This document shows positions 28,239 to 45,374 of a stretch of 64,000 nucleotides of DNA, piece after piece. The notes beneath the pieces were generated by a model. The model saw only the letters and a program-made list of their open reading frames with translations, made no database searches and was not told the origin of the DNA. The DNA is from Oceanispirochaeta sp. (GTDB lineage: Bacteria; Spirochaetota; Spirochaetia; DSM-2461). How positions within the stretch are numbered: the first letter of the stretch is position 1; each line of letters begins with the position of its first letter. A program made the position numbers and the translations under genes. The stretch spans positions 32,001 through 96,000 of the forward strand of contig CAXXXD010000004.1 of NCBI GenBank assembly GCA_963663385.2. Direction: 5' to 3'.

Positions 28239-28339
28239 GGTTAAAAAATGCTTGGAGCTTTCTATGGGAAACTTTCTGTAGAATAGTGCTTCAGGACCGG
28301 ACTGACAGACGATCCGGTCGTATCCCTCTTCCAGCAGTT

Positions 28340-28645
28340 CCATGGCCTCGGGTGATTACCGCATTGGCAGGCGGCTTTCCGGTCCCCAAAGAGAATATCC
28401 GCGTGGTGGGCAGTATTGAGGCTATCAACCGCAGTGTCATTGAGAACAAGGGCGCAGCAGTGATCTCCCGTCTGGCTATCGAATCGGAGTTGAAGTACAA
28501 CCTTATCCGGCAGGAGGAATTCGCCGAACATCTGGATCTGAACCGTAAAATCTTTTCCATTATCAGAAGGAACACTCCTCTTTCAATGGCCGACGAGATC
28601 TTTCTGGATTTTACACGGGATTCTCTGAAAATGAGCTCATGGTAA
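28340..28645 (+). pseudogene. C-terminal remnant of a LysR-type substrate-binding domain
   Basis: GSIEAINRSV..N.GAAVISRLAIESEL...L.LNR......R.....S.....FL pattern; no HTH. Confidence 0.55.
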
Positions 28646-28895
28646 AAAATGGGAAAGAACTCTTCCCCCGGCTCTTTCCGTGCGTTGGATAACGGGGATT
28701 TTATTCCCCATCCTGCATCGAATTGAGTAAAAATATCTCGTTTTCCGCCTGGCGGATTTTCTGCAATGGAACGGAAAAATAAAAAAAGCAGATATACTCT
28801 CCCCTTTCATACAAGGATAAAGTTTTTAATTGTAGAGAAATAGTGAGATAGGGCTATACTTTTTTATCCGATAGGGAATAAATCTCTTTAAAAGA

Positions 28896-28911
28896 TGGCA
28901 CAGGCTTTGCA
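28896..28911 (+). promoter_or_regulatory. Sigma54 (-24/-12) promoter
   Basis: TGGCACAGGCTTTGCA matches TGGCAC-N5-TTGCA, with GG at 28897-98 and GC at 28909-10; 30 bp upstream of the operon start, and the operon encodes a GAFTGA activator. Confidence 0.85.
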
Positions 28912-28941: not shown

Positions 28942-29904
28942 ATGAAACGACTTGCAATTTTATTTTCAGTTATTTTTCTTTTAGCTTCTCTTCTGCCCCT
29001 CAGCGCTGCGGGACAGAGCGATGGCGGCAGTGATCAGAAAACTCTGGCGGTCTGCTTGCCGGGAAGTGTTGAGTTCTTTTCCGTTCAGAAAAAAGGAATG
29101 GATAAAGCGGCGGCCGAATTCGGTCTGAAACTGATCTATTCGGATGCAGAATGGGATGCCGCCAAACAGCTCAGTCAGGTTGAAAACTTTGTCGCAAGAC
29201 GTGTAGACGCTGTACTGCTCTGTGCCGCTGATAACCAGGCTCTTCTTCCGGCTGTAAAGCTTTGTAATGAGGCCTCTATCCCCCTCTTTACCTTTACCAA
29301 TACCCTGGGGGCCGATCCCAATGGTCAGGTGGACGGAATTGAAACCTTTATCGGAATCAATGAAATCTCTCTGGGACATATGATGGGAGAAATGGCCGAA
29401 GTTCTTCTGGGTGAGAACGAAGCCAATATCGTACTGATCGAAGGAAACCCCGGTACGGCTCCTCAGAGGATGAGAACAGAGGGCTTTATGGAATATGTGA
29501 ATAAACACAGCAACTGGAATATCGTATATCAGCAGGCCATCCCCGGCTGGACCAAGGAAGGGGCTCTCTCCGCTGTCGAAGCCGTACTTCAGTCCGGAGA
29601 GAAAATCGATCTGATCAGCTGTCAGTGGTACAACGGCGCTGCCGCCGCGGCCATGGCTCTCGAAGAATCCGGAAACTCGGATGATGTATACATTACAGGT
29701 CTCGAATTCTCAAAGGAACTGATCCCCCTGATTCAGAACGGTAAAGTGGATATGACCTCCAACTACTCCATCGAGGGGTCCGGTTACACCGTTATTGAGA
29801 CGGCAAACAGGTACTTCAGCGGTGAAAAGATTCCATCCTTTATTCCTCTGGATGCCTATATCGTAGATGGAAAAAATGTTGATTCGGTAACACCCGAACT
29901 GTAG
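28942..29904 (+). CDS. RbsB-like sugar ABC substrate-binding protein
   Basis: Signal peptide; EFF...KGM..AA, DA.WDAAKQ.SQVENF and IEGNPG....RTEGF. Confidence 0.9.
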   Translation: MKRLAILFSVIFLLASLLPLSAAGQSDGGSDQKTLAVCLPGSVEFFSVQKKGMDKAAAEFGLKLIYSDAEWDAAKQLSQVENFVARRVDAVLLCAADNQALLPAVKLCNEASIPLFTFTNTLGADPNGQVDGIETFIGINEISLGHMMGEMAEVLLGENEANIVLIEGNPGTAPQRMRTEGFMEYVNKHSNWNIVYQQAIPGWTKEGALSAVEAVLQSGEKIDLISCQWYNGAAAAAMALEESGNSDDVYITGLEFSKELIPLIQNGKVDMTSNYSIEGSGYTVIETANRYFSGEKIPSFIPLDAYIVDGKNVDSVTPEL

Positions 29905-29973: not shown

Positions 29974-31170
29974 ATGACTTGGGGAACTCAGCTCTTTCTG
30001 AGCGCTGATGAAAAAAAGAGGTACAGCCTCGAAGATCTTGAAACAGAATTGAAAAGGGTCGTCCACAGGCCGGGAATAAACCGCCTTATGTTCTGGAACA
30101 CCCGGGATGATGAATATACCGAGGCGGTGCTGCGGATCTGCAGGGAGAGTTCGACAGAGTGCTGGCTCTGGTTTCCCGTGCTGGCGGACTCTCTCGTCTC
30201 TTCGGAAAATGCGCGGCCTTCGGTTAATCACAGGGGCGGGAGCGGCCTCTGCTCCCCCGGTGCCATGACGCTGGAAGGCGATGGAGAAGAGGAGTTCTCC
30301 TTCCTATGCCCCTCAGACAGAGCCTTTGAAGAACAGACCGAGGCGCATCTGGCCGAACTGCTGGACAGGTATGATTTTGACGGTGTCTTTCTGGATCGGA
30401 TCCGCTTCCCGTCATTTGCAAACGGCCTGCCCCTTCTGTACTCCTGTGTCTGTCCCGAGTGCTGCCGCAGGATGAATATCGACAGGGAGCAGATTACCCG
30501 TGAGTTCGAATCTCTGAAGGGCGATGCGTTTCTTTCTCTGTTCTGCGGGATCGGCGATGCGGCGGAAGTGCGGAAGAACTACAGGCATATTCAAAAATTC
30601 ATTGAAGAAAGAATGAAGCTTATTACGGATAAAGTGGAAAGACTGAACAGGATTATCCGCAGCAGAGACAGGGCTATGGCCCTGGATCTTTTCACGCCCG
30701 GACTCGCCCGGGCTGTGGGGCAGGACTACTCCGCCCTGAGCCGTTTAGCCGACTGGGTAAAGACCATGACATACGCCATGGCCTGGGGACCCGCCGGAAT
30801 ACCGCTCGAACTGGACTGTCTCTATAGAGGCATACGCGAAACTTTCCCCGATCTGGGGGAGGACGATATTACCAATGCATTGGGATACATGATGGGCTGC
30901 GATCTGAAGCCCTATTGGGAGAACAGAAGCAGCGAAGGCTTTCCGTCTTCTCTGGCTTATTCCGAATGGAAACGAACGGAAGCATTTTCTGAGAACTGCC
31001 GCTTTCTTCCGGGGATAGAGCTTGTTCACAGCGAGCTCTTCAAAACCAAAGTTCCTGAATCAAGGGCTGCGGAAGCAGTTGAACTCTTCGGGGAAAAGAC
31101 CGAAATCATCGCCTGCTGGAACTGTCTGGAAATTCCCGATAGATATTTCACAATGCTGGATAGAGGATGA
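29974..31170 (+). CDS. Uncharacterised glycoside-hydrolase-like TIM-barrel protein
   Basis: FLCPS...YDFDGVFLDRIRFP, C.C..C and GQDY..L patterns reminiscent of GH42/GHL10-like folds; located inside a sugar ABC operon. Confidence 0.55.
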   Translation: MTWGTQLFLSADEKKRYSLEDLETELKRVVHRPGINRLMFWNTRDDEYTEAVLRICRESSTECWLWFPVLADSLVSSENARPSVNHRGGSGLCSPGAMTLEGDGEEEFSFLCPSDRAFEEQTEAHLAELLDRYDFDGVFLDRIRFPSFANGLPLLYSCVCPECCRRMNIDREQITREFESLKGDAFLSLFCGIGDAAEVRKNYRHIQKFIEERMKLITDKVERLNRIIRSRDRAMALDLFTPGLARAVGQDYSALSRLADWVKTMTYAMAWGPAGIPLELDCLYRGIRETFPDLGEDDITNALGYMMGCDLKPYWENRSSEGFPSSLAYSEWKRTEAFSENCRFLPGIELVHSELFKTKVPESRAAEAVELFGEKTEIIACWNCLEIPDRYFTMLDRG

Positions 31171-32669
31171 TAATAATGCCGGAAAAATTACTCTCTCTGG
31201 ATAACATAAATAAAAAATTTTCTGGCGTGAGCGTTCTGCAGAATATCTGCTGGGATGTTCACAAAGGGAAGGTACACGCTCTTCTGGGAGAAAACGGCGC
31301 CGGGAAATCTACCCTGATTAAGATAATTTCCGGCGTCTATTCGCTGACATCGGGAAAGGTCAGCCTTGAAGGGGATGCCATTCATTTCAGTTCTCCCCAG
31401 GACGCTGTAAAAGCCGGAATCAATGTGATCTATCAGGAAACGAGTCTGGTGCCCACCCTGACTGTGCTTGAAAATGTGTTTCTGGGGATCGAACCGATTC
31501 AGAACGGTCTGATTGACGAGAAGGACATGGAGCTCCGCTACACTTCCCTGGTGGAAAAAGTCGGAGTGGATATAGACAGGACCCGGAAGGTTTCAAGTCT
31601 GGGAGTGGCCGAGAAGAAAATCGTCGAGATCATGAAAGCTCTTGCCAGAGAAAGCCGCCTGATCATTATGGATGAACCTACGGACTCTCTGTCGGCTAAG
31701 GAAGTGGACCTGCTTTTCAATGTCATCAGGGATCTGAAGAGCAGGGGAATCACCCTGATCTATATTACCCATTTCCTGGATGAAGTCTTTCGTATCTCCG
31801 ACAGGATCACCATACTGAAGGATGGTCTGCTGGTCTGTGACAGGCCGGCTGAAGAGATGACGGTTGAATCCATCGTGTCCCATATGGTCGGCGACATTCT
31901 GGAACTCGACGGGACGGCCGAACTGAGTCCGGAAGCCTATGCCGCTCCCCGTCTTGAAGTTCGGAATCTAAGGGCCGATGATATCGTGAAGCCCAGCAGT
32001 TTCAAGCTCTATCCCGGTGAGGTCCTGGGTATAACAGGCGTTGTGGGAGCCGGAAAATCCGAGCTGGGGCATGCTCTTTTCGGTGCCGTCAAAAGGGCGG
32101 GAGGCGAGATCCTGCTGGACGGGAAGCCCCGCCGTATCAGATCGCCCCGGGACGCCGTATCCGCCGGCATAGGGATGACCACCGAAGACAGGAAGGAAAC
32201 AGGGCTTCTGCTGGACGATTCGATCAGGCGCAACCTGTCCCTGGCATCTCTGAAGAGGATCTTGAAAAACGGTATCATCCACTCCGGAAACGAGCTGGAG
32301 CTTTCGGAAAGAAGCTGCAGGAATCTTGAAGTGAAGTCTACCGGACCGGAACAGCATCTGCGGTTTCTGAGCGGCGGGAATCAGCAGAAAATCGTTATAG
32401 GAAAGTGGCTCGCAGCGGATCCGGATGTGCTGATAATGGATGAACCGACCCGGGGGATCGATATCGGTGCCAAACAGGCCGTCTACAGGGTTATCAGAGA
32501 GCTGGCGTCCAAGGGGAAATCGGTCATCTTCCTGTCCTCCGAGCTGCCCGAAGTCCACGCCCTCTGCCACAGGATCCTTGTGATGGGACGGGGATACATT
32601 CAGAGGGAGTTTTGTCCCGAAGATTCAATAGAATCCATAATGAAAGCCATGCTGGAAGGAGATGCATAA
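31167..32669 (+). CDS. RbsA/MglA-like double-domain sugar ABC ATPase
   Basis: GENGAGKST, DEPT, EDRK..G, LSGGNQQK, DEPTRGIDIGAK and SSELPE. Confidence 0.95.
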   Translation: MIIMPEKLLSLDNINKKFSGVSVLQNICWDVHKGKVHALLGENGAGKSTLIKIISGVYSLTSGKVSLEGDAIHFSSPQDAVKAGINVIYQETSLVPTLTVLENVFLGIEPIQNGLIDEKDMELRYTSLVEKVGVDIDRTRKVSSLGVAEKKIVEIMKALARESRLIIMDEPTDSLSAKEVDLLFNVIRDLKSRGITLIYITHFLDEVFRISDRITILKDGLLVCDRPAEEMTVESIVSHMVGDILELDGTAELSPEAYAAPRLEVRNLRADDIVKPSSFKLYPGEVLGITGVVGAGKSELGHALFGAVKRAGGEILLDGKPRRIRSPRDAVSAGIGMTTEDRKETGLLLDDSIRRNLSLASLKRILKNGIIHSGNELELSERSCRNLEVKSTGPEQHLRFLSGGNQQKIVIGKWLAADPDVLIMDEPTRGIDIGAKQAVYRVIRELASKGKSVIFLSSELPEVHALCHRILVMGRGYIQREFCPEDSIESIMKAMLEGDA

Positions 32670-32672
32670 GCC

Positions 32673-33632
32673 ATGAACTCGGTAAATATATTAAATCAGA
32701 AAAATCTGACCCAGATAACACAGAAATACGGAATCATGATTCTGTTTTCTATACTCAGTATTATAATTTCTATCGTCACACCAAACTTTCTGAACAGCCA
32801 GAATATTATCAATATTCTGAGACAGAGCTCCATTATCGGAGTGATGGCCATAGGAACAACCTTTGTTATTATCGGCGGAGGATTCGATATTTCGGTGGGG
32901 AGTGTGCTGGCTCTGTCTGCAGCCATGGCGCTCGGGCTGCAGGCGCATATGCACTGGGTCCTTGCCATGACTGTCGTTCTCCTTGCGGGAGCCGCCATTG
33001 GATTCTGTAACGGATTCCTTGCCGCCAAAATAGGGATAGTTCCGATCATCGCCACTTTGGGAACCCAAACCTTTGTCCGGGGGCTGACCTATATGTACAC
33101 AGGAGGATATCCCGTTACCGGAGACTCTGCGGGATTCCAGTTTATCGGCTCCGGGTATATCGGCGTTATCCCTTTCCCGATCATACTGCTTCTGACCATG
33201 GTTTTTCTCTGGCAGTTTGTATTGAGTAAAACTCCTCTCGGACGTTACAGCTGTGCTATCGGCGGGAATAAGGAGGCTACAAGGCTCTCGGGAGTCAATG
33301 TGGACTTCTATCAGATCATGACCTTTGTGATCGGCGGCGGTATGGCTTCCATGGCCGGCATTGTCTATGCAGCCCGTCTGAGTTCCGCCACTCCCCTGGC
33401 GGGACAGGGGTATGACCTTGACGCGATCGCTTCAACGGTTATCGGCGGCACCAGTGTTTCGGGAGGACAGGGCAGTATCGTAGGAACCCTGATCGGGGTT
33501 CTTCTGATGACGATTCTGAATAATATGTTCAACCTTATGGGAGTACAGGTGTATGTGCAGTACCTTGTCAAAGGAATGATTATCCTCCTGGTTGTGGGGA
33601 TCGACTCCTATTCCAAAAAGCAGAAAAACTGA
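32673..33632 (+). CDS. RbsC-like sugar ABC permease
   Basis: GGFDISVG, IATLG, AIGGNKEATRLSGV and IASTVIGGTSVSGG.G. Confidence 0.94.
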   Translation: MNSVNILNQKNLTQITQKYGIMILFSILSIIISIVTPNFLNSQNIINILRQSSIIGVMAIGTTFVIIGGGFDISVGSVLALSAAMALGLQAHMHWVLAMTVVLLAGAAIGFCNGFLAAKIGIVPIIATLGTQTFVRGLTYMYTGGYPVTGDSAGFQFIGSGYIGVIPFPIILLLTMVFLWQFVLSKTPLGRYSCAIGGNKEATRLSGVNVDFYQIMTFVIGGGMASMAGIVYAARLSSATPLAGQGYDLDAIASTVIGGTSVSGGQGSIVGTLIGVLLMTILNNMFNLMGVQVYVQYLVKGMIILLVVGIDSYSKKQKN

Positions 33633-33689
33633 AAACCCATTATAAACTTGGTGGTGACTTAAGTATGAGAACAGGATTATAATGCCGGT

Positions 33690-35045
33690 ATGACAGACAG
33701 GAAGAGCAGTGAAAACAGGATGAACCGTGTGCTTATCGTCGATGATGAGCTTGAGTACTGTCTGTCCATGAAGGATCTTTTCGAGGAGTCCGGCTATTTC
33801 TGTTCTCATTCTACTGAGCCCGAATCCGTTATCGGGCTGCTGACGTCAGGGGATATCGATATTATTCTCCTGGATCTGAAGATGCCGGGAATCAGCGGCA
33901 TCGATCTTCTTAAGAGAATCCGGATCTATGATTCCCGGATTCCGGTTATTATCGTCTCCGGACATATCGATATAGAAACGACGGTGCAGGCTATGCAGAT
34001 AGGAGCCATGAATGTCCTGAAGAAGCCTGTGCGTTTCAGCAGAATGCTCAAAGAGATATCTGGAATCCTCAATACCGGCGAAAGGCCGGCTGTTTCCAAT
34101 GGGAATCCCGTACCCGGTTCACCGATCATCTGCAGCCATAAGGGGATGCTTGAAATAATCAGTTCCCTGAAAAAAGTAGCCGAAACGAATGCTCCTGTAC
34201 TGATAACAGGTGAAAGCGGAACCGGGAAGGAGCTGATAGCCGATGAGATACACCGGCTGAGCAGGCGTTCCGACAAAAACTTTGTAAAGCTCAATTGCGC
34301 CTCCCTCCCGGAGCCGCTGCTTGAAAGCGAACTTTTCGGTCACAGGAAGGGTGCCTTTACCGGGGCAGACAAGGACAGACCGGGACGTTTCAACCTGGCT
34401 CACGGAGGCAGTATGTTTCTGGATGAGATGGGAGATATGAGCCTGATGATTCAGGCCAAACTGCTCCGGGTCCTTCAGGACCGACAGATCACAGCCCTTG
34501 GAGAAGACGAGGCAAAATCCGTTGATGTAAGGATAATAGCGGCAACGAACAAGGATCTTCATGCCATGATGAAGGCCGGGAGTTTCCGGGAGGACCTGTA
34601 CTACAGGCTGTCGGTCGTCCACTTTGAACTCCCGCCTCTTAGGGAGAGAAAAGAGGACATTCTCCTTCTGGCCGAAGCCTTCAGGGAGGAAGCCTGCCGC
34701 GAGTACGGAAGAGGGATCATCGGATTTGAAGCGGAGGTGGAGGATCTTCTCCGCTCCCATATGTGGCCGGGGAATATCAGGGAACTGAAAAACTGCATTC
34801 AGCGCTCCGTTATCTTCTGTGAAAATGAGCGGATCGCGAAAGGGGACCTTCCCTCTCAGTACCAGGATATCCAGAGCTTGAACTGGTCTGATGAATATGA
34901 ACTGGCCATTGACAATATCAACAGGGAACTTATAGAGGAAGCCCTCCGTAAGAGCCGGGGCAGGAAGTCAAGGGCGGCGGAACTTCTGAATATAGACCGT
35001 AAAACCCTCTATAACAAGATGAAGAAACTGAACATAGGGGAATAG
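33690..35045 (+). CDS. NtrC-family sigma54-dependent response regulator
   Basis: REC domain (IVDDE, LDLKMP), GESGTGKE, ESELFGH.KGAFTGA, FREDLYYRL, WPGNIREL and Fis HTH. Confidence 0.95.
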   Translation: MTDRKSSENRMNRVLIVDDELEYCLSMKDLFEESGYFCSHSTEPESVIGLLTSGDIDIILLDLKMPGISGIDLLKRIRIYDSRIPVIIVSGHIDIETTVQAMQIGAMNVLKKPVRFSRMLKEISGILNTGERPAVSNGNPVPGSPIICSHKGMLEIISSLKKVAETNAPVLITGESGTGKELIADEIHRLSRRSDKNFVKLNCASLPEPLLESELFGHRKGAFTGADKDRPGRFNLAHGGSMFLDEMGDMSLMIQAKLLRVLQDRQITALGEDEAKSVDVRIIAATNKDLHAMMKAGSFREDLYYRLSVVHFELPPLRERKEDILLLAEAFREEACREYGRGIIGFEAEVEDLLRSHMWPGNIRELKNCIQRSVIFCENERIAKGDLPSQYQDIQSLNWSDEYELAIDNINRELIEEALRKSRGRKSRAAELLNIDRKTLYNKMKKLNIGE

Positions 35046-35053
35046 GCCGGGGT

Positions 35054-36862
35054 ATGGACGAAGTTCTTCAGATGAATGATATTCATCATTCCTATGGGGT
35101 GACAAAGGCGCTGAACGGAGTTGATTTCAAGCTCCGCAGGGGGGAATTCCATGCTCTGGCAGGAGATCACAGAGCCGGAAAATCCACTCTGATCAAGCTG
35201 CTCTGCGGTGCCATCCGCTGCCGCCAGGGGGAGATCGTGCTCCCTTCCGGTATCTACTCCTCCCTGACACCGCGCAGGGCCAACCGGGAGGGGATAGGCG
35301 TTGTTTTTCAGGAGGAGTCTCTGGTTCCCTCCATGAATGCCGTTGATAATCTCTTCTCCGGACATTACAGGCTCTTTCCGGGCGGAACGATCCGCTATAA
35401 GCAGCATGCGGAAGAACTTAGACGTTTCTGCTCCTCCATGGATCTGGACCTGGATCTTAACAGAGCTGTTTCCCAGATCGATAAGGTTCATCAGCATCTG
35501 ATTGAATTTATAAGGGCAATCTATTTTAATCCCTCGATTCTGATTCTGGATGAGATCTCCATTCGGTTTAACCCCAGAGAGATGGACCTTATCTACAGAC
35601 AGGTTCTGAAGATGAAAAAGGAAGGTCTCGGGATCATCTATATCTCCCATGATATGGATGAGGTTATGGAATTCGCGGACAGGGTGACCATTCTCAAGGA
35701 CGGGCAGTGCAGAAAGACCGAGAGCATCGGGAATCTTAACAAGATGCAGCTCTACTATATGACCTACTCCCGGGAACTCTCCAGAAAAGAACTCCGACAG
35801 GCAAATCTTGAACTTTACAAATTCAAAAAATACAACGAAGCCGTCATCCGTAATATCCCGGTGGGCGCTGTCATCCTGGATAAGGACCGGAAAATCTATC
35901 AGGTAAACGAAAAAGCCTCTTCCCTGCTGCGCTTCAAGGGGGAAAATGAGGTTGATCTCGAAAGAGTCCTGAGAGATCTGCGACCCGATGACGCAGATGA
36001 AATCAGACAGGCCATCAAAGAGGAGAGAAGGCTTCATCTTGTGAGTGTTGCCTATGGTGAGGACAGTTTCTATGACCTGCTCTGTACCCCATTCAGCGGA
36101 GATGACGGAGAAGCCGGCGGGACAATCATACTGATTGATGACAGAACGGAAGCGCTGAAGCTTCGCGATTACATGAGGCGGACAGAGCAGATTTCATCCA
36201 TCGCCGAGTTGGCGGCCGGCGTTGCTCATGAGATCAATAATCCCCTGAATATAATTCTGAATTATATGGATCTGCTTTCCATGGCCATTCAGGACGAACC
36301 GTCTGTGGGCAGGCTGAAAAAGATTGAAAGGGAGATACAGAGGATTACCGAAATCACAGGAAGTCTCCTCTCCTTTTCCAGGGTCAAAGATACGGAAATG
36401 ACGGAGTGTGACTTGAAGCAGGCTCTTGAAGAGGCTCTTCTTCTTCTGAAATACCGTATTGAGTCAAGAGAGGTCAAACTTCTTCTCGACCTGCCGGAAG
36501 ATCCTGTCATGATTTATGGAAACATGAATAAGCTGGAGCAGGTCTTCATCAATCTTATTATGAACAGCCTGGATGTCCTGCCCCCTATGGGGGAGATAAG
36601 GGTCCATATCGACAGCAGTGAGGATACCGTGAGGGCGACTTTTTCGGACAACGGCCCCGGTATTGATGAAACCATTGTCGACGATATTTTCAATCCCTTC
36701 TTCACGACCAAGCTGGCGGATAAGAATTCCGGCCTGGGGCTTTCCGTATCGCTTCATATCATGTCCGAGCACAGGGGAACGATCGAATATTTGCGGGGAA
36801 ACGGTTTGACCACCTTCCTGCTGAGTTTTTCAAATACGGTCGGCCCGGGTGTAGTCGAATGA
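35054..36862 (+). CDS. Fusion protein: ABC ATPase (NBD) domain + PAS + histidine kinase
   Basis: About aa 1-235: GDHRAGKST, VVFQE, ILILDE, IYISH and ADRVTILKDG. Then PAS (VIRNIPVGAVILD), H-box AHEINNPL, QVFINL..N, DNGPGI, FFTTK and SGLGL. No TM segment. Confidence 0.9.
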   Translation: MDEVLQMNDIHHSYGVTKALNGVDFKLRRGEFHALAGDHRAGKSTLIKLLCGAIRCRQGEIVLPSGIYSSLTPRRANREGIGVVFQEESLVPSMNAVDNLFSGHYRLFPGGTIRYKQHAEELRRFCSSMDLDLDLNRAVSQIDKVHQHLIEFIRAIYFNPSILILDEISIRFNPREMDLIYRQVLKMKKEGLGIIYISHDMDEVMEFADRVTILKDGQCRKTESIGNLNKMQLYYMTYSRELSRKELRQANLELYKFKKYNEAVIRNIPVGAVILDKDRKIYQVNEKASSLLRFKGENEVDLERVLRDLRPDDADEIRQAIKEERRLHLVSVAYGEDSFYDLLCTPFSGDDGEAGGTIILIDDRTEALKLRDYMRRTEQISSIAELAAGVAHEINNPLNIILNYMDLLSMAIQDEPSVGRLKKIEREIQRITEITGSLLSFSRVKDTEMTECDLKQALEEALLLLKYRIESREVKLLLDLPEDPVMIYGNMNKLEQVFINLIMNSLDVLPPMGEIRVHIDSSEDTVRATFSDNGPGIDETIVDDIFNPFFTTKLADKNSGLGLSVSLHIMSEHRGTIEYLRGNGLTTFLLSFSNTVGPGVVE

Positions 36863-36995
36863 TTTAAATTCTGAAGATCCGGGGATAACCGGTACTTTAT
36901 CCGGTTGTTTTCAATCGGCCGAAGACTACCCGGCTCCTGTCAGGGGCGTGATATCTTGTTTGAATCTAATGTAAAATACGATATAATACGTTCCT

Positions 36996-37826
36996 GTGAG
37001 AACCAGTAACAGTTTATTATCAGCTTCCCTGCAGGAAAGACAGAAAGAACTGTCGTGTATCTTTTCTGTTGTCCGGATCCTTGTGATACCTGCCATCTCG
37101 ATTAATGCGGCGTTAGAGAAAATAGCGGAAGCTGTCCCTCAGGGTTTTACGTCTCCTGAAAAAACTCAAATTCAAATAAAATATAAGAGTTTCAATATTA
37201 CGTATGGCGCTTCCGGTAAAGTCATTGATTCTATTGAGGAGCCCTTAAAAGATGAAGCTGGAGAGGCTGGTTCCATTTGGGTCGGTATAGTGGAGCAGCA
37301 GAATAATAACACCTCCAGCCTCCTGCAGGAGGAGAAAGAGCTTCTTAAAGGATTAGCAGTTGTCTCCTCAGCAGTTATTGCCCGTATTGAAATGGAGAAT
37401 TCTCTCGCTGAAGCATTCAGCGAGCTGAAGCAGAAAAATTCAGCTTTAAGAGAAATACTGTTCCAGGTCGAGTCAGAAAAAAGAAGGCACTATGATGTAT
37501 TGTGTCATTTTGTGGAAAACCGGATTTTCCCTCTACTGGATGAGAAAGTTACCGATTCCAGGCAGATGCACATAATGAAAGAGATGGAGGAGGAACTGCT
37601 GTTTTCTCAACCAAACAAAGATCTCATCGATCAACTATCTCTCCTTTCTCCCCGGGAGTACCAGATCTGCAGCTATATAAAAGCGGGAATGACCAATAAA
37701 GAAATCGGAGAACTATTGAAGTTGTCATCTTCCACAGTAGAAAAACATCGTCATAGTATTAGAAAAAAGCTGAACCTGACAAATCGGAATATAAATCTGT
37801 CTATTTATTTGCGGAACCTCAAGTAA
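36996..37826 (+). CDS. LuxR-HTH transcriptional regulator with GAF-like N-terminus
   Basis: LQERQKELSC...EEKELL N-terminal region; LSPREYQIC..IKAGMTNKEI..LL.LS..TVEKHR..IRKKL. Confidence 0.82.
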   Translation: MRTSNSLLSASLQERQKELSCIFSVVRILVIPAISINAALEKIAEAVPQGFTSPEKTQIQIKYKSFNITYGASGKVIDSIEEPLKDEAGEAGSIWVGIVEQQNNNTSSLLQEEKELLKGLAVVSSAVIARIEMENSLAEAFSELKQKNSALREILFQVESEKRRHYDVLCHFVENRIFPLLDEKVTDSRQMHIMKEMEEELLFSQPNKDLIDQLSLLSPREYQICSYIKAGMTNKEIGELLKLSSSTVEKHRHSIRKKLNLTNRNINLSIYLRNLK

Positions 37827-37965: not shown

Positions 37966-38382
37966 ATGAAAATTATTAATCGTATATTGAATTCCCATGA
38001 TATAGATAGGATCAGCGGATTTCTTAAACTGGCCACTATGGGTGGAAAAGAAAAGTTCAGAACACTCTGTGAATTGAAAAAGGATCTGGAGACAGCTGCA
38101 ATCCTTGAACCGGAGGATATGCCCCCGAATGTTGTAACTATGAACAGCGAGGTTCGTATTGAAGGGGTAACTTCTGACGGGTCTACCGTTGTAAAACTGG
38201 TATTTCCGCAGGAAGTCAGTTCCAAAGAGGGGAATATTTCCCTCCTGGCTCCCCTGGGCGCCGCATTACTGGGGCGTCAAAGAGGAGATCTTATCTCGTA
38301 CTCGGCCCCGGGGGGAGAAATAAAAGTTAAAATAGACGCTATTATATTTCAACCGGAATCAAATGGAGATTTTATTTCCTGA
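37966..38382 (+). CDS. rnk: Regulator of nucleoside diphosphate kinase (GreA/GreB family)
   Basis: MPPNVVTMNS, LVFP, ISLLAPLGAALLG and FQPE. Confidence 0.85.
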   Translation: MKIINRILNSHDIDRISGFLKLATMGGKEKFRTLCELKKDLETAAILEPEDMPPNVVTMNSEVRIEGVTSDGSTVVKLVFPQEVSSKEGNISLLAPLGAALLGRQRGDLISYSAPGGEIKVKIDAIIFQPESNGDFIS

Positions 38383-38733: not shown

Positions 38734-39042
38734 AACCGTTTAAAAAACATATTTAATACTCTGAATACGTCCCGGGCTATCAGAGGGTTGAAGCGTCCGG
38801 TCCTGCTATGATGATCTGCCCGTATATTCATATCCCACAGACTCCTGGACAAATTTCCTGTCATTTTTTATTGTAAGGAACCCTTCTTACCAGATATAAG
38901 AAGAAAAAGAGCACTTTTCTTATGGTGATGTTTAAAAACCTTGAATTCCCCGATAAGCGGGATAAAATTATAAGTGGTGAGGGGAATAATTAAAAATATG
39001 TGGACCTGCTGCAACCAGGCAGCCACAAAAGGAGTGTATCCG

Positions 39043-39525
39043 ATGAAAAAATGGATAACGATTTTATTGATAACTATGCTTGCCATGCCTCTGTTTGCAT
39101 CAAACGGTGATACTTTGAATATCGGGGGAGTTGTTCCTCTCCAGTTGGACCTGACCGTAGACCCGGTCCCTTACAGTCCTGACGATCTGACACTTGTGGC
39201 CGGTGTGACAACTGCTGTAACAGCACTGGGGATAGCCGATATTGGTATTGCAACAAACAATACTGCCGGCTGGGAATTGTGGGTCATGTCTGCAAATGCA
39301 GGCTCCCTTCTGAATGATGACGGCGATAACGTAGACTATACTCTGACCTATGACGGGTCGGGCGGAGTTACTGCTGCTGTTCCTATAGTTGCCGGAACAA
39401 AGCTCGGCGAAGCCGGAACCGACGTTGATGAATCTGCTCTTTTATCCATCAACTACAGTCAGGAACCCGATTACCCCGCCGGTTACTACACCGATCAGCT
39501 GACTATTATTCTGAGAGCTAAATAG
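39043..39525 (+). CDS. Putative major pilin of a chaperone-usher pilus (SCPU/Csu-like)
   Basis: AAGGAG RBS, signal peptide, beta-rich 160 aa, NN.AG.EL...S.N, DYTLTY, and C-terminal PAGYYTDQLTI strand; first gene before chaperone and usher. Confidence 0.7.
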   Translation: MKKWITILLITMLAMPLFASNGDTLNIGGVVPLQLDLTVDPVPYSPDDLTLVAGVTTAVTALGIADIGIATNNTAGWELWVMSANAGSLLNDDGDNVDYTLTYDGSGGVTAAVPIVAGTKLGEAGTDVDESALLSINYSQEPDYPAGYYTDQLTIILRAK

Positions 39526-39526
39526 A

Positions 39527-40429
39527 GTGTCATCCCTAAATAGGAATCTCGCCGCCTTTGCCCTTCTTTTGCTGTTGTTTCAGGGGGGATTGGCGGCTTT
39601 TACATTTTCTCCCATTTCTCAGGAATTTACTGAGGAAGGGAAAAAAAGCAGTCATGTCTTTACAATTTCCAATGATTCTGTTTCTGAAAGAATCGCAGTA
39701 AAGGTGTCTGTTTTTGAAAGATTTATGGATGAAGAGGGGAACGAAACCCTTGAATCCTGTCCCGGCGATTTTCTTATCTATCCTGTCCAGAGTATACTGA
39801 ATCCGGGTGATTCCCGCTCTGTTCGTATCAAATGGCAGGGCGGACAGGTTGGCAAAAGGGAAAAGGCTTACAGGTTGATAGCTGAACAGCTTCCCGTGGA
39901 TTTCCGGGAAGAGCAACCCCGGGACGATGGGGCCGGTATCCGTTTCACCTTTCGTTATGAAGGCAGCCTTTATGTTCTTTCTCCTGAAGCGGAAGCGGAT
40001 ATTCAACTGGTATCCATAAGCGAGATTCCTGCTGAAACAGCTGTAATAATGATTCCCAATGAAGCGGCTATCAAAGCGTATGAAGAAGCTCTGAAGAGCG
40101 TTTCTGAAGAGGACGCGGAATCAGAGGAGACTCCTGTTCTCAAACGTCCCCCGGAAATGATTGAGAAAATTATTGAAGTAGAACCGCCCCGTTTGAAACT
40201 GTTGTTTGAAAACAGTGGAACCCGCCACGCGATCCTGGGAGAATTGACCATACAGCTGGAAAGCCTTTACAGGGATTTTAAGCCTGTAATACTGAACCCG
40301 GAAGATCTGGCCGGTGTTAACGGAGAGAATATCCTGGCGGGCAGTAAGCGGTCTTTTCTGATTCCCGAACCTTCAGAGGTGAAAGGACGGGATATACGCT
40401 GGAGTTTCACCTATAAACCGGTGTACTAA
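39527..40429 (+). CDS. PapD-like periplasmic pilus chaperone
   Basis: FTFSP, F.I.N, FLIYPVQSILNPGDSRSVRIKW, EKAYRLIAEQLP, ENSGTRH and NILAG.KR. Confidence 0.82.
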   Translation: MSSLNRNLAAFALLLLLFQGGLAAFTFSPISQEFTEEGKKSSHVFTISNDSVSERIAVKVSVFERFMDEEGNETLESCPGDFLIYPVQSILNPGDSRSVRIKWQGGQVGKREKAYRLIAEQLPVDFREEQPRDDGAGIRFTFRYEGSLYVLSPEAEADIQLVSISEIPAETAVIMIPNEAAIKAYEEALKSVSEEDAESEETPVLKRPPEMIEKIIEVEPPRLKLLFENSGTRHAILGELTIQLESLYRDFKPVILNPEDLAGVNGENILAGSKRSFLIPEPSEVKGRDIRWSFTYKPVY

Positions 40430-40456
40430 GGTCTTTTCCTGCCGAAAATTAAAGTA

Positions 40457-42808
40457 ATGGTCCGTAATTCCTGGATATTATTTATCTTTTTTTTGATCTC
40501 TCTGTCTCTTTGGGCTCAGGAAGAGATTCTGCTTCCGGTGCCTCTCTATTTAGACGGGGTTTATTCCGGAGAGATCGATCTTAAAATAAACGGTGAAGTT
40601 CTTGTCCAGGCCCGACCCCTCTTTAAACGCCTGGCTCCTCTGCTGGATCAGGAGAAGCTGGAACACAGTCTCAACAGGTGGAGACAGGTGGAATGGACTC
40701 CCTGGGAAAATCTGAATGATTCTCTTATTTCGGTTGAGTACGATGAAGCAAGGCTTATTTTTCTTGTAGAAATACCACCGGAATCCAGAAAACCGGGAAC
40801 TTATTCCCTTGTTAGAGAGGAAATTGAGCCTCCGGGCAACCTGATCAAGCCGGCTCAGCTTTCGGGCGTTGTGAATATGGAGGGATGGAGCCGGGTTTAC
40901 TATGATCCTTATCTATTAAATTATGAAATTGGTCCGGAGCTGGGCATCAATTATTCCGGTTATACCCTGGAGGCCAAAGGGGGCATTCAGTCTGAGGGCG
41001 ACCAATATTTCCTGGATTATGGAAGAGTCGTGAAGGACTTTCTTCCTCTGTCACTCAGAGCGGAAGCGGGAAATCTGACTTATGATGCAGACGGCTTTGG
41101 TCAGACCAATATGGTAGGAATCTCCCTTTATCGGAAAACTTCACTGGATATGAATTATCTGGCAGTGCCGGAACTGGGACAAACCATCTTCTTTCCCGAA
41201 CCGGCAGAGATAGAATTTCGGGTTAATGGTAAGACTGTAAGAAGAAAGCGTGTCCCTGCTGGAGTGTGGACCTTCAGGAACTTCCCCCTGAACCAAGGGC
41301 CGAATGATGTAGAGATTGTCTGGACCGACAGTTCGGGTGAGCATCGGGAGTCCTTTTTTCAAATATACGACAGCAACCTTTTAAAGAAAGGTGAAACGGA
41401 TTGGGGGATTTCGGCAGGGACAGACAGTTGGTATACCTTGAATCCTACTTTCCTTGGGCATATCAATCGGGGACTGACTCCTGTTTTCAGCGTCGGAATC
41501 AGCAGCTATTATGATTACTTTGAAAACGAGATAGCTTTGGAAATGCCTTTTGGGTTTGCTTCACCTTACGGGAATTTTCGGCTTGTCCCTTCGGCGGATA
41601 TGATCGTGGATGAAGGATATGGATCAGGAATTGTCCTGAATCACTCTTTCTCAGAAAGCAGGGCAGGTCATCTTCGTCAGAGTTTTGGCAGTTCCTGGGG
41701 ATTCCAATGGGACTCTTATGCAGCAGAAACTCAGACATACTCCTCCCGGGTTTATTATAATTACTCACCTTTGAAAGATCTTTCTCTAACTCCGGCTGTT
41801 AACTGGCAGTATGAAGCTCTCGAAAGCTTACATACGGCTGATTTTTCTGTGCGTGTCCGAAAAAGCGGGGGTGACGGCAGTACTCTATCCATACAGATCG
41901 GGATGGAATATGTTGAGGAGAAGTGGTCACCCAAAGCGATATTGACCTATTCCATCTCATTTCCCGAGTATCAACAGAGTTTTTACACTCAGGGTGATCT
42001 GAGCGGAGAAAAGATGACCCTATCCTGGAACAGGTATAGCGAAACAGATAAACAGAAGGACTACAATCTGTCGGCATCTGCCATAATTCCCGCTGATAGA
42101 GGGGACAGATTGACCGGTTCCATGAGCGGCGGATATGTTCATCCCCGGTTTAATGCAAGTCTGTCCCAGGGATTCAACGGTTTCCTGGCGGAAGAAAATT
42201 TTGAAAATACCACAACTTTGTCAGCTGGTACGGCTCTTGTTTTTGCCGACGGGGTTCTGGGTTGGTCCAGTCCGGTTAAAAGTGAGTTCGTACTCATAGA
42301 ATCCCGGATTGGTCCTTTAGCAGTGAATCCTACCTCCATGGGAGCCAAACTTGAAATGGATGGAGAAACACCTGAGATCATCAGTACCATTTCTCCCTAC
42401 CGTTATACAACACTCAGACTTGTTCCGGAGGAAATGCCTATCGGCGCTGATATAAACGATTATACAGTAAGCATTTTCCCAACTTTCCGATCAGGAACCC
42501 TGATCCGGGTGGAAGAGAAAATCTATATGTATGCCGGTGGCGTTCTATATGATGAGAATGATCGTCCCATGGATCTGATTCTGGGCAAGATTTATCCTCT
42601 CTCTGACTCCTGGATGGGGGATGAAGAGTCTGAATGGCCCCGTGAGTTCTTTACAGATGAAACAGGATATTTTGAATGCTACGGCCTTGTCCCCGGTAAA
42701 TATCGCTTGACTCAGACGGACAGGGAGTTAACCTATATAATAGAAGTAGTAGCAAATGACAGCGGTTATGAGGATCTGGGGGAGGTAAAACCTGAAAGTC
42801 GGAATTAG
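40457..42808 (+). CDS. Outer-membrane usher-like protein
   Basis: Signal peptide; plug-like VNG......PAG...F..FPL..G.NDVEI..TD..G; SNLLKKG; amphipathic beta strands; C-terminal FFTDETG.FE..GL.PGKY. Confidence 0.78.
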   Translation: MVRNSWILFIFFLISLSLWAQEEILLPVPLYLDGVYSGEIDLKINGEVLVQARPLFKRLAPLLDQEKLEHSLNRWRQVEWTPWENLNDSLISVEYDEARLIFLVEIPPESRKPGTYSLVREEIEPPGNLIKPAQLSGVVNMEGWSRVYYDPYLLNYEIGPELGINYSGYTLEAKGGIQSEGDQYFLDYGRVVKDFLPLSLRAEAGNLTYDADGFGQTNMVGISLYRKTSLDMNYLAVPELGQTIFFPEPAEIEFRVNGKTVRRKRVPAGVWTFRNFPLNQGPNDVEIVWTDSSGEHRESFFQIYDSNLLKKGETDWGISAGTDSWYTLNPTFLGHINRGLTPVFSVGISSYYDYFENEIALEMPFGFASPYGNFRLVPSADMIVDEGYGSGIVLNHSFSESRAGHLRQSFGSSWGFQWDSYAAETQTYSSRVYYNYSPLKDLSLTPAVNWQYEALESLHTADFSVRVRKSGGDGSTLSIQIGMEYVEEKWSPKAILTYSISFPEYQQSFYTQGDLSGEKMTLSWNRYSETDKQKDYNLSASAIIPADRGDRLTGSMSGGYVHPRFNASLSQGFNGFLAEENFENTTTLSAGTALVFADGVLGWSSPVKSEFVLIESRIGPLAVNPTSMGAKLEMDGETPEIISTISPYRYTTLRLVPEEMPIGADINDYTVSIFPTFRSGTLIRVEEKIYMYAGGVLYDENDRPMDLILGKIYPLSDSWMGDEESEWPREFFTDETGYFECYGLVPGKYRLTQTDRELTYIIEVVANDSGYEDLGEVKPESRN

Positions 42809-43730
42809 TATTTTAATAAGTCTTTTTTTTATCTTTCCTCTGACTGCTCAGGAGACTTTCGGTTTTTACGCCCCGCCCGGAGGTATCTATCTGAATGCTT
42901 CTTTTGAAAGAGAAGAAACAGTTATTGTTTCTGTCACAGTAGAGCATGAAGGAACGGGCATTCCGTCCTGGTTTATATCTGCTTCGGCAGGAGGTTCAGC
43001 CTCCTATACCGCAAGAGAGATGGATCAGGGAAGTTATACCGTGGAATACCAGATCTATAAAAATGCTCCGCCCGCGACGGCCGTTCTAAAAGCTCCTCCG
43101 GAAACTCTGGGAATTGACAATGTTATTTCCACAGGCGATTTTTCTACTGATGCCGCCGCGGTTGAAAGGATATCCTATGACCTTTATTTTTTTATTGATT
43201 CGGGTCAGTTTACAGCTTCCGGAGAGTACCTTGATACGATAACGATCTCTCTTTACGAGGGGGACTACGGAGACAGCGGGACCCATGTCCTGGCGGATTC
43301 CTTTGATGTGGGCGTGACTGGCCGGATGGCTGAGCTGATTGATCTTTATGCCGATAAAGAATCGGACAACCGGTCTCTGGATCTGACCAGTGACTTAACG
43401 GATAAGAGAATCGCCTATGTTAATGAACGGAGTAACTGCGCCCTGGGATACGAAGTAACGATCCGCAGCAGCAATATGGCTGCAGACGCTTCGGCTACGG
43501 CGCCCTTTATGGAACAGGATGCCGGGGCAGACAGGCTGGACTACTCTCTGGAATATGACAGTGTTCCCGTTTCCGGCTGGGTTGATGGAACCGCTTTGAT
43601 CACAGATTCTTCGGGAATCACCTCGCCGGAATGGCTCACCAAGGAACTGACCCTGTCTTATACGGGCGACACGACACTGGCCCATGGAGAGTATGAAGAT
43701 ATCCTGACTCTGATTATTACAGCAAAGTAG
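42792..43730 (+). CDS. Two-domain minor pilin/tip subunit, CTG start
   Basis: The frame of ORF 43020 is open back to CTG 42792, which follows GGAGGT; in-frame TAA at 42786. This adds the signal peptide (M)KVGISILISLFFIFPLTA-QE. Two pilin C-strands: SGEYLDTITI and HGEYEDILTL. Confidence 0.75.
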   Translation: MKVGISILISLFFIFPLTAQETFGFYAPPGGIYLNASFEREETVIVSVTVEHEGTGIPSWFISASAGGSASYTAREMDQGSYTVEYQIYKNAPPATAVLKAPPETLGIDNVISTGDFSTDAAAVERISYDLYFFIDSGQFTASGEYLDTITISLYEGDYGDSGTHVLADSFDVGVTGRMAELIDLYADKESDNRSLDLTSDLTDKRIAYVNERSNCALGYEVTIRSSNMAADASATAPFMEQDAGADRLDYSLEYDSVPVSGWVDGTALITDSSGITSPEWLTKELTLSYTGDTTLAHGEYEDILTLIITAK

Positions 43731-43850: not shown

Positions 43851-45326
43851 ATGGGTATTATACGTGTTCATCGGTATCCCAATCGTTTCTATCCGAACCC
43901 GAAAAGGGTTATCGCAAGGTTTTTTATAGCCGGTGGAAATGAAAGAAGTCTTCTTCTGATTCAGAAAATCCTGAAGCTCAGTGAAGATGAAGCTGCTGTC
44001 AAGCTCCAGACTGTTCTTGATAACTATGCCAACAGGCATCGGAACATTACCGATGTCTTTCAGCGCCATTTTTCCAATATTGTCCATTTTCTTGATGATT
44101 TGGGGATCGATCCGGAAAGCCTGAGCTATAAAAGGAAAATGCTGATAGGAGCATATTTTACCCATGAATACTCCATTGAATCGGCTGCCTTCTTTAACCC
44201 GTCAGTGATTGAATCTCCCAATCAGGATCATTTGGAAGACGGAGAAAAGAGGATTATTGTCAGCTTTCGGGCAACGGGGGAAGGTCATGTGTCTTCCATC
44301 GTATTCAGAAGCGGTATCATTGACCGCAATCATAACCTGCATTTCAAACCGGTCAATAATCTTGTAGAAATGCCCGAGGTGGTAAAGCGAACAGAATACA
44401 ATAAAAAGCTGTATCTGCAGAAACTTGATGAAATGAATATCCATAAAGATATCGTTGATCAGATTATGGCGCCCCTGAATGACTACTTCACCTACGGGGA
44501 TCTTCAAAGAAGCATTCGTAGTACGGTTGATAATAATACAACTCTGTCAGTTTCCAAAAAAAATGTAATCAATTCTCTGGTCTGGCTGGCGGATTCCCAT
44601 TATGAGATCCAGTTTTCCGATGATACCACTATATCCGAGAGAGTTATCTTCCCCGTTTCCGGTTCTGAAAGCAACGGGATCGAGGATGCCCGGTTCGTTC
44701 GTTTTACGGATGATGACGGGAGCGTTATCTATTACGCTCCTTTTACCGCATATAATGGGTTTACCATTCTGCCCAAGCTACTGGAAACAACGGATTTTTA
44801 TCATTTCACCACAAGGCCTCTCCATGGGAAAGGGGTTCAGAACAAGGGGCTGGCTCTGTTTCCACGGAAGATCCGGGGGCGCTATGTCATGGTGTCCCGT
44901 ATTGACGGATTCTGCAATTATATAATGTATTCAGATGATCTGCTTACCTGGAATGAGTCTGTAAAGATTCAGGAACCCGAGTACCCCTGGGAGCTGGTGC
45001 AGATCGGTAACTGCGGTTCTCCCATTGAAACCGAGAAAGGCTGGCTCCTGGTGACACACGCAGTCGGGCCAATGCGGGAGTACTGTCTGGGGATCTCTCT
45101 TCTGGATCCTGAACATCCGGAAAAAGTTATTGGAAAAGTAGAAGAGCCTATACTGATTCCCAATGATGAAGAGAGGGAGGGGTATGTTCCGAACGTTATA
45201 TACTCCTGCGGATCACTGCTTCTGGGTAATACGCTGATCATTCCCTACGGCATGTCCGACTCCGGATCAGCCTTTGCCTATTTGAAGCTGAATGAGATTC
45301 TGGAAAAACTTAAGGTAATAACATAA
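43851..45326 (+). CDS. GH130-family glycosidase/phosphorylase (long form)
   Basis: FFNPS, RATGEGHVSS, GIEDARFV, NKGLALFPRKI, IGNCGSP and GYVPNVIYSCG. Confidence 0.88.
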   Translation: MGIIRVHRYPNRFYPNPKRVIARFFIAGGNERSLLLIQKILKLSEDEAAVKLQTVLDNYANRHRNITDVFQRHFSNIVHFLDDLGIDPESLSYKRKMLIGAYFTHEYSIESAAFFNPSVIESPNQDHLEDGEKRIIVSFRATGEGHVSSIVFRSGIIDRNHNLHFKPVNNLVEMPEVVKRTEYNKKLYLQKLDEMNIHKDIVDQIMAPLNDYFTYGDLQRSIRSTVDNNTTLSVSKKNVINSLVWLADSHYEIQFSDDTTISERVIFPVSGSESNGIEDARFVRFTDDDGSVIYYAPFTAYNGFTILPKLLETTDFYHFTTRPLHGKGVQNKGLALFPRKIRGRYVMVSRIDGFCNYIMYSDDLLTWNESVKIQEPEYPWELVQIGNCGSPIETEKGWLLVTHAVGPMREYCLGISLLDPEHPEKVIGKVEEPILIPNDEEREGYVPNVIYSCGSLLLGNTLIIPYGMSDSGSAFAYLKLNEILEKLKVIT

Positions 45327-45374
45327 GTATTTTAGTCCTTTTGATAATTCTCCCCTGCCTAAGGAGGTGTACAC

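Follow-up and report, generated by a model that had tools for sequence, protein, structure and literature searches.

The locus described here lies in a 64,000-nucleotide stretch of a contig from Oceanispirochaeta sp. (hereafter the window), in which the genes of a CUT2-type sugar importer are followed by those of a two-component system whose histidine kinase begins with the nucleotide-binding domain (NBD) of an ABC transporter. The features that concern this analysis, numbered from the first letter of the window, are as follows.

28694..28709, strand not applicable: palindrome GGGGA-N6-TCCCC, approximately 190 bp upstream of the sigma-54 box
28896..28910, + strand: sigma-54 promoter box (-24/-12), 46 bp ahead of the start of the binding-protein gene
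28942..29904, + strand: RbsB-like sugar-binding protein (Peripla_BP_4, E 6e-50)
29974..31170, + strand: 398-aa protein, possibly a GHL10-like glycoside hydrolase
31167..32669, + strand: tandem-NBD transport ATPase of the RbsA/AraG type, with an intact Walker A in NBD1 and LSGGNQ in NBD2
32673..33632, + strand: RbsC-like CUT2 permease (BPD_transp_2, E 5e-45)
33228-33299, + strand: permease residues 186-209, the docking segment for the kinase NBD predicted by a complex model
33654..33683, + strand: weak sigma-70-like promoter (10 of 12) before the regulator
33690..35045, + strand: NtrC/AtoC-type response regulator, with a receiver, a sigma-54 AAA+ domain carrying GAFTGA, and a Fis-type HTH
35054..36862, + strand: soluble fusion kinase NBD-linker-PAS-HisKA-HATPase, 602 aa in a single open frame
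35060..35767, + strand: its ABC NBD input domain, residues 3-238
35771..36154, + strand: helical linker (residues 240-261, low model confidence) and PAS domain (262-367)
36203..36820, + strand: kinase core, HisKA and HATPase_c, with the His392 codon at 36227-36229 (AHEINNP) and N, G1, F and G2 boxes

A preliminary description of this DNA had read the kinase gene as one uninterrupted 602-residue frame encoding an NBD, a PAS domain and an intact kinase with no transmembrane helix, and all of these points were borne out. Pfam places ABC_tran at residues 20-167 (E 3e-18), PAS at approximately 262-367, HisKA at 384-444 and HATPase_c at 492-589, the last two both above cut-off, and the sequence hallmarks of a class I histidine kinase are present; among family kinases, AHE-x-x-NP is found in 111 of 128 and DxGxG in all 128. 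Hydropathy over a 19-residue window peaks at 1.18, and the protein therefore lacks a membrane helix. In an AlphaFold2 model (mean pLDDT 81, pTM 0.44) the NBD, PAS and kinase core are all folded and the linker at 240-261 is of low confidence; the structural matches of this model are separate ABC ATPases and separate PAS kinases, with no solved chain covering both NBD and kinase among the matches listed. The possibility of misassembly near position 35760, raised in the same description, was addressed with contigs from four runs: in three of them single contigs cover 33600-37000 with 0, 0 and 56 differences (the two runs with zero differences may be the source sample itself), and a contig of the fourth crosses the NBD-kinase junction with 55 differences. 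Furthermore, a protein search that returned the best 120 matches yielded at least 119 further sequences that carry ABC_tran, HisKA and HATPase_c and extend over at least 95% of the query, at 38-87% identity, and this genome itself holds five full-length copies, so that the fusion is not peculiar to one assembly. Together, the junction-spanning contigs, the relatives and the copies in the same genome rule out misassembly or a chance fusion, and the NBD-PAS-HisKA-HATPase fusion is confirmed as real.

Family members, which databases label either AtoS or ABC ATPase, are common among related organisms: of 401 genomes sampled from the class, 91 give a match with an E value of 1e-120 or lower, in a count made by hand with three candidates scored per genome. 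The members listed point to a family that belongs to Spirochaetota. A spirochaete profile applied to samples of five other phyla at E 1e-100 gave matches in 0/301, 0/17, 0/201, 0/201 and 0/251 genomes, a result that concerns close members only, 4-6 candidates having been scored per genome (77 in the 17-genome sample). At looser cut-offs none of the matches listed from other phyla spanned both NBD and kinase, and the NBD-only matches checked in Chloroflexota were tandem ATPases in four cases out of four. In the ESM Atlas, two clusters of ABC_tran-HisKA proteins of 826-852 aa have Actinomycetota as their commonest phylum, and GAF_2 occurs in 99% of the members of one of them; these proteins possibly represent an independent fusion, and a search for longer proteins did not recover the GAF-containing form. 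A further Atlas cluster holds ABC_tran-HisKA proteins of 515 aa, apparently too short for a PAS domain. An alignment-based genome scan with kinase-core patterns, covering one of 64 parts, gave 2 useful loci out of 80. Two interrupted members were also seen, one broken by a stop codon (L146:9060-10865) and one split between NBD and kinase (L286:8986-10800).

The other four copies in this genome are placed as follows.

C4:706175, C2:933986, C1:133917 and C1:182770 (G000): four paralogous fusion kinases (L081-L084), each with its own sigma-54 activator and importer

The association with importers was assessed in 120 regions around approximately 140 long matches, chosen for contig room, together with the five loci of this genome and with the stop-broken L146 excluded. 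A sigma-54 activator lies directly upstream of 120 of the 125 intact fusion genes, and a CUT2 permease lies within 6 kb of 111 of the 125, or of 81 of the 83 for which 6 kb is present on both sides, counts that include related, non-independent genomes. The synteny with CUT2 operons that had been proposed as a check is thus present; in control counts from this genome, a CUT2 permease lies near 6 of the 63 other kinases and near 10.8% of sites taken at random. When metagenome loci were sought with the NBD alone, 67 of the 79 found proved to be full-length fusions, the rest being cut by contig ends with one split, and all eight of those with room have a CUT2 permease. The linkage spans many families and importer subtypes, including single-NBD and two-permease types, and the full ATPase is retained in every complete operon.

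Several loci depart from this common plan. The L084 kinase is paired with an importer that has two permeases and a binding protein of another type, and the importers linked to the kinases of L131, L136, L137, L139 and L151 have a single-NBD ATPase whose LSGGQ is intact. At L152, L154, L156, L224, L225 and L291 the importer cluster contains extra pairs of binding protein and permease with no ATPase of their own, which could be dedicated sensing modules or modules that share an ATPase. At L215:9035-13641 the kinase is accompanied by a truncated regulator of 219 aa, and then come a permease and a binding protein. No tandem ATPase gene was found there within 20 kb, a sigma-54 box is likewise absent, and a racemase of the LarA family is encoded next to the set; the locus is possibly decaying or a sensor-only set.

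The output of the system can be approached through its promoters. The box at 28896..28910 is the only zero-mismatch sigma-54 site in the window. Among family loci, the leading gene of the importer has a box of this kind in front of it at 85 of 110 genomic loci and at 18 of 34 metagenomic ones, as compared to 0 and 1, respectively, on the opposite strand. This genome encodes sigma-54, and the box is found before none of its 35 other importer binding-protein genes versus four of the five beside fusion kinases. Since the box precedes the importer, the general biology of bacterial enhancer-binding proteins makes the importer operon the likely target of the kinase-activator pair. The preliminary description had overlooked both this promoter and the size of the family, including its five copies in the genome. 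Autoregulation of the two-component genes through sigma-54 was rejected, as a box stands before 0/121 and 0/57 regulator genes. The palindrome at 28694-28709 is kept in both of the related loci that could be aligned (L148 and L158), where its flanks diverge, and on this sequence evidence is a candidate enhancer for the activator, whose Asp62 is at the acceptor position. The sigma-70-like site at 33654..33683, one of 16 such sites found against 8.4 +/- 3.4 expected by chance, would at best weakly suggest that the regulator is expressed independently of sigma-54. As for the 398-aa protein, it has no Pfam or NCBIfam match, and its Atlas look-alike is named GHL10 (score 0.98) in a cluster with no Pfam family in common; the gene occupies the same place in L148 and L158 and may relate to the sensed sugar, which is offered as a lead only.

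The NBD of the kinase was previously aligned with that of the operon ATPase, and all five motif pairs then quoted are present in the alignment, in which 66 of 216 positions are identical to NBD1 (31%, E 8e-36). Identity to the second NBD of the same ATPase is 25%, and to another ATPase of this genome 39%. The best NCBIfam matches for residues 1-250 are the first NBDs of CUT2 tandem ATPases (RbsA, NupO, AraG, XylG and YtfR), and by sequence the domain is NBD1-like, resembling the first NBD of RbsA-type ATPases. In a quick tree with 65 NBD1, 10 NBD2 and 5 single-NBD sequences, the 30 kinase NBDs sampled all fall in one group (SH-aLRT 94); because they group apart from the transport NBDs, there was probably one old fusion that was later paired with many importers. 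A recent duplication of the neighboring ATPase is ruled out by this grouping and by the closer match to another ATPase.

The fusion NBD keeps the four catalytic motifs, namely Walker A (GDHRAGKS, with its Lys), Q86, D166-E167 and H199; the LSGGQ signature is absent, the P-loop is altered and the D-loop consensus is lost, so that the signature and D-loop features of a transport ATPase dimer are lacking. In the family at large, all four (Walker A Lys, Q-loop, Walker B Asp-Glu and H-loop His) are retained in 77 of 105 kinases, with the Q-loop Gln in 119, the Walker B pair in 116 and the H-loop His in 87 of 124, a tally from which a Walker A filter removed four of 128 sequences (L160, L188, L244 and L245), making the Lys count partly circular. 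Position 39 is His in 116 of the 124 kinases and Asn in all 105 transport NBD1s; of 147 kinase NBDs, 1 contains a string resembling the signature; and the D-loop Pro, present in 99% of transport NBD1s, is found in 0% of kinases, where the D-loop Pro-Thr and the MVGR linker motif are replaced. An ABC ATP site requires the signature of the partner NBD, and its P-loop faces the partner's D-loop. Kinase NBDs lack the signature, and a kinase homodimer would therefore hold two ATP-binding half-sites with no signature. In the neighboring ATPases, NBD1 carries GENGAGKS in 102 of 105 cases and NBD2 carries LSGGNQ in 105 of 105, which matches the layout with one degenerate and one active site given for RbsA and NupO in the excerpts of PMC11466899 and PMC13739795.

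The preliminary description had further proposed that the NBD docks on the cognate permease, and had suggested modeling the kinase with the protein encoded at 32673-33632. A complex of two permeases and one NBD (not an NBD dimer) scored 0.64, against 0.00 for the best of three controls, none of which contained a non-cognate NBD. Of the solved complexes, 116 of 157 attain the mark used for this score, as do 2 of 215 mismatched pairs, counts that hold roughly here; at least 93% of contacts recur between runs, and partner pLDDT is at least 80. The predicted interface joins NBD residues 51-53, 72-77, 83, 89-94, 98-105, 107 and 111-115 with permease residues 186-209, and several of these positions had stood out in a sequence comparison before the model existed. 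A search of the PDB by sequence found no CUT2 permease; since other ABC complexes are present there, the pass may reflect a likeness to solved ABC transporters that any NBD with this groove may share.

The groove itself was scored against a profile of transport NBD1s. The fusion kinase reaches 2.05 in the groove and 0.52 elsewhere, its own subfamily (43) 1.41 and 1.00, and held-out ATPases 1.83 and 2.19. In a second subfamily (46 rows) the groove has diverged (-0.38), although most members lie beside importers, and three of the five paralogues in this genome show features of this second group, which may either have evolved together with its permeases or have a different way of working; the four sequences dropped from the motif tally are included in this scoring. 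As for covariation, the 25 predicted contact pairs gave a mean z of 0.81 (p 0.005) over 105 kinase-permease pairs with an effective n of 43, compared to 0.28 and 0.35 for the ATPase domains. In 27 rows outside the model input, which are kin of the other rows, z was 0.63 (p 0.008, effective n 16), with shuffled values of at most 0.39. The interface block taken as a whole showed no covariation (p 0.77), and mutual information across the whole interface and top-ranked pairs were uninformative. In the groove, kinases are also closer to the NBD1 of their own neighbor than they are at other positions (p 0.04-0.05, n 94), a test whose NBD2 version was null (p 0.32); these paired tests left out loci with importers on both sides. 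Finally, a comparison of distances gave 0.28 for kinase NBD against permease and 0.14-0.17 for PAS, DHp and CA, in a test whose positive control (DHp-receiver) failed and in which the kinase NBD did not beat the AAA domain of the activator. Linkage, the complex model, groove retention and weak covariation thus all lend computational support to the predicted docking. Of the earlier wording, that the NBD binds in place of, or alongside, the transport ATPase, the first half fits the sequence better than the second.

The reading that we favor, with a probability of roughly 0.55, is that a dimer of the kinase replaces the ATPase on the permease, relays the arrival of sugar-loaded binding protein, and switches on the importer operon. 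According to this proposal, the NBD groove would grip the coupling segment predicted at permease residues 186-209, and two kinase NBDs would occupy the two identical coupling segments of a permease homodimer. The sensing complex would consist of binding protein, permease dimer and kinase dimer, and would coexist with the transporting complex. Each kinase NBD would still bind ATP, and the pair would hydrolyze it poorly or not at all because neither copy has an LSGGQ, such that the assembly would report conformation and would not pump. The pairing of kinase with kinase is favored by His39 and the missing D-loop proline on one side and, on the other, by the GENGAGKS of transport NBD1 opposite an invariant LSGGNQ; the retention of Walker B and the H-loop exceeds what a dead enzyme needs and counts against this proposal. 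Movement would pass through the C-terminal helices and linker to the PAS domain and on to His392, from which phosphate would be transferred to Asp62 of the activator, which would then bind the palindrome at 28694 and open the promoter at 28896.

Two related loci bear on the strongest of the alternatives.

L244:12306-17791 and L245:2079-7545: fusion kinases in which Walker A is of the Asn type and the groove is eroded, no adjacent importer

In both, a sigma-54 box precedes an operon of two Zn-dehydrogenases, a glycyl-radical enzyme and a probable activase, and the nearest listed permease is approximately 11-13 kb away; the family can therefore do without an adjacent permease. Their groove scores are very low (-1.5 and -1.6) and the 70-80 helix is missing, which, in the absence of an adjacent importer, fits the link between groove and permease. 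The same loci, which seem to control catabolic genes, can also be cited in favor of a free cytoplasmic sensor, whose NBD would bind a small ligand (giving a reading of the ATP/ADP ratio or, in the remodeled P-loop, of the imported sugar or sugar phosphate) and for which the importer would merely be a target. Such a sensor would also account for the family-specific Walker A His and for the subfamily with a diverged groove, and a regulator is expected beside its target anyway. It agrees poorly with a groove that this protein keeps far better than the rest of its NBD and with contact pairs that covary with the permease; moreover, with each of the five paralogues at a different importer, five specificities are required, and a single nucleotide signal would not supply them. 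We consider it unlikely, with about one chance in five.

A kinase dimer seated on the permease must also be weighed against a mixed arrangement, in which the kinase NBD pairs with NBD2 of the ATPase (or with a single-NBD subunit) within a functioning transporter. The LSGGNQ of the partner would complete a true catalytic site, and the kinase would sense transport turnover. The four catalytic residues, retained in most kinases as in catalytic NBD1, the five loci whose single-NBD ATPases could exchange a subunit, and the full ATPase kept by every complete operon speak for this arrangement. NBD1 of a tandem ATPase is nonetheless tethered to NBD2 and would need to be displaced, the partner-facing P-loop and D-loop residues that are fixed in NBD1 are changed in kinases, and partial correlations of the kinase NBD, from the distance test whose positive control failed, are -0.08 with NBD1 and 0.07 with NBD2 versus 0.16 with the permease; this arrangement is somewhat less probable still than the free sensor. 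That the NBD only tethers the kinase to the permease, for localization or sequestration, while the PAS domain senses the sugar or a metabolite, would suit the presence of a PAS domain and all of the docking evidence, which fits a passive tether equally well, yet appears improbable given that PAS is the least conserved part with few invariant columns, that the 515-aa Atlas proteins are apparently too short for one, and that ATP-site residues needless for a tether are retained.

If the kinase does take the seat of the ATPase, a broader and more tentative generalization, to which we give somewhat less than even odds, is that spirochaete sugar ABC importers exist in two forms that share binding protein and permease, a pump with the tandem ATPase and a receptor form in which a kinase dimer substitutes for the motor, turns the conformational stroke of the permease into phosphorylation, and carries out no transport. 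Were this true, an ABC importer would amount to a receptor across the membrane whose output module can be exchanged, which would be a new kind, and the fusions of Actinomycetota type would be parallel inventions.

Known systems resemble the fusion kinase in part. Like it, the Bce modules of Bacillus subtilis (BceAB-BceS/BceR) employ a histidine kinase that senses through an ABC transporter and induces the transporter genes, according to excerpts of PMC10314905 and PMC6978683; BceS differs in being a separate membrane kinase that contacts BceB through membrane helices in a peptide-resistance transporter, as described in part of PMC10314905. The fusion kinase, in turn, is soluble, has an NBD of its own with a predicted seat in place of the ATPase, and goes with a binding-protein-dependent importer and sigma-54; its kinase is not membrane-embedded, and its permease is of the BPD_transp_2 family with a binding protein, and not of the BceB type. 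PhoR, the kinase associated with the Pst importer, has membrane anchors. In the PstSCAB-PhoU-PhoR/PhoB system of E. coli, an ABC importer likewise controls a PAS-containing kinase that regulates the importer, and the link is indirect, through the adaptor PhoU, in the account excerpted from PMC6978683, whereas the fusion kinase carries the transporter-like part itself; no adaptor gene was noticed in the loci inspected. CbrA and CrbS (SLC5-STAC-kinase) also unite a transporter part and a histidine kinase in one chain; what is fused there is a secondary carrier's membrane domain, as stated in portions of PMC11109136 and PMC5715377. In the fusion kinase that part is a soluble ABC motor domain, the membrane part being a separate gene, and Pfam matches neither an SLC5 membrane domain nor STAC. 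The first NBDs of the CUT2 tandem ATPases named above are alike as the source of the domain, with intact Walker A/B and a degenerate signature; the fusion NBD differs from them in having no second NBD, a Walker A His and a replaced D-loop and MVGR motif, and in being followed by PAS and kinase. The kinases of LuxPQ and TorT-TorS contact a periplasmic binding protein with a periplasmic domain of their own. In them, as in the fusion system, the binding protein likely gives ligand specificity; the fusion kinase has no periplasmic domain, and the permease would act as the relay. The fusion works like the Bce, Pst-PhoR and CbrA/CrbS systems yet falls outside the definition of each.

To our knowledge, transporter-coupled sensing is known only via separate kinases, adaptors or fused membrane carriers, and an ABC motor domain as kinase input would be new wiring. 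No description of this fusion was found by title and abstract opening in a literature search that covered subscription journals thinly and had supplements outside its range. The label of ABC 'transceptor' applied in the preliminary description is not retained: in the strict definition excerpted from PMC11109136, a membrane transporter fold serves as receptor and soluble bridging domains are excluded, and the transporter-derived part of the kinase is soluble; the permease could act as the receptor within the complex. Input through an ABC motor would explain how sugar outside the cell could be perceived by a kinase that is cytoplasmic and lacks a sensor domain, and would provide a phosphorylation read-out of conformation for CUT2 permeases, a class for which no permease structure was found in the PDB. 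As kinase-permease pairs differ among paralogues, they form a natural set for studying the specificity of coupling helices and for sugar biosensors.

Other genes of the window were noted in passing. Upstream of the importer, 28286-28645 resembles the end of a LysR substrate-binding domain (E 8.5e-5, below cut-off) and is likely a gene remnant. The kinase is directly followed by a LuxR-type regulator with an unannotated N-terminal region (36996-37826), downstream of which lie a protein with a GreA/GreB C-terminal domain (37966-38382) and, in this spirochaete, a chaperone-usher-like cluster (38974-43730) with a PapD_N-like chaperone, an usher and an SCPU-domain protein. The interval 43851-46553 encodes a GH130 phosphorylase-domain protein and then a glycosyltransferase-like gene, the latter identified from a reading of the sequence alone.
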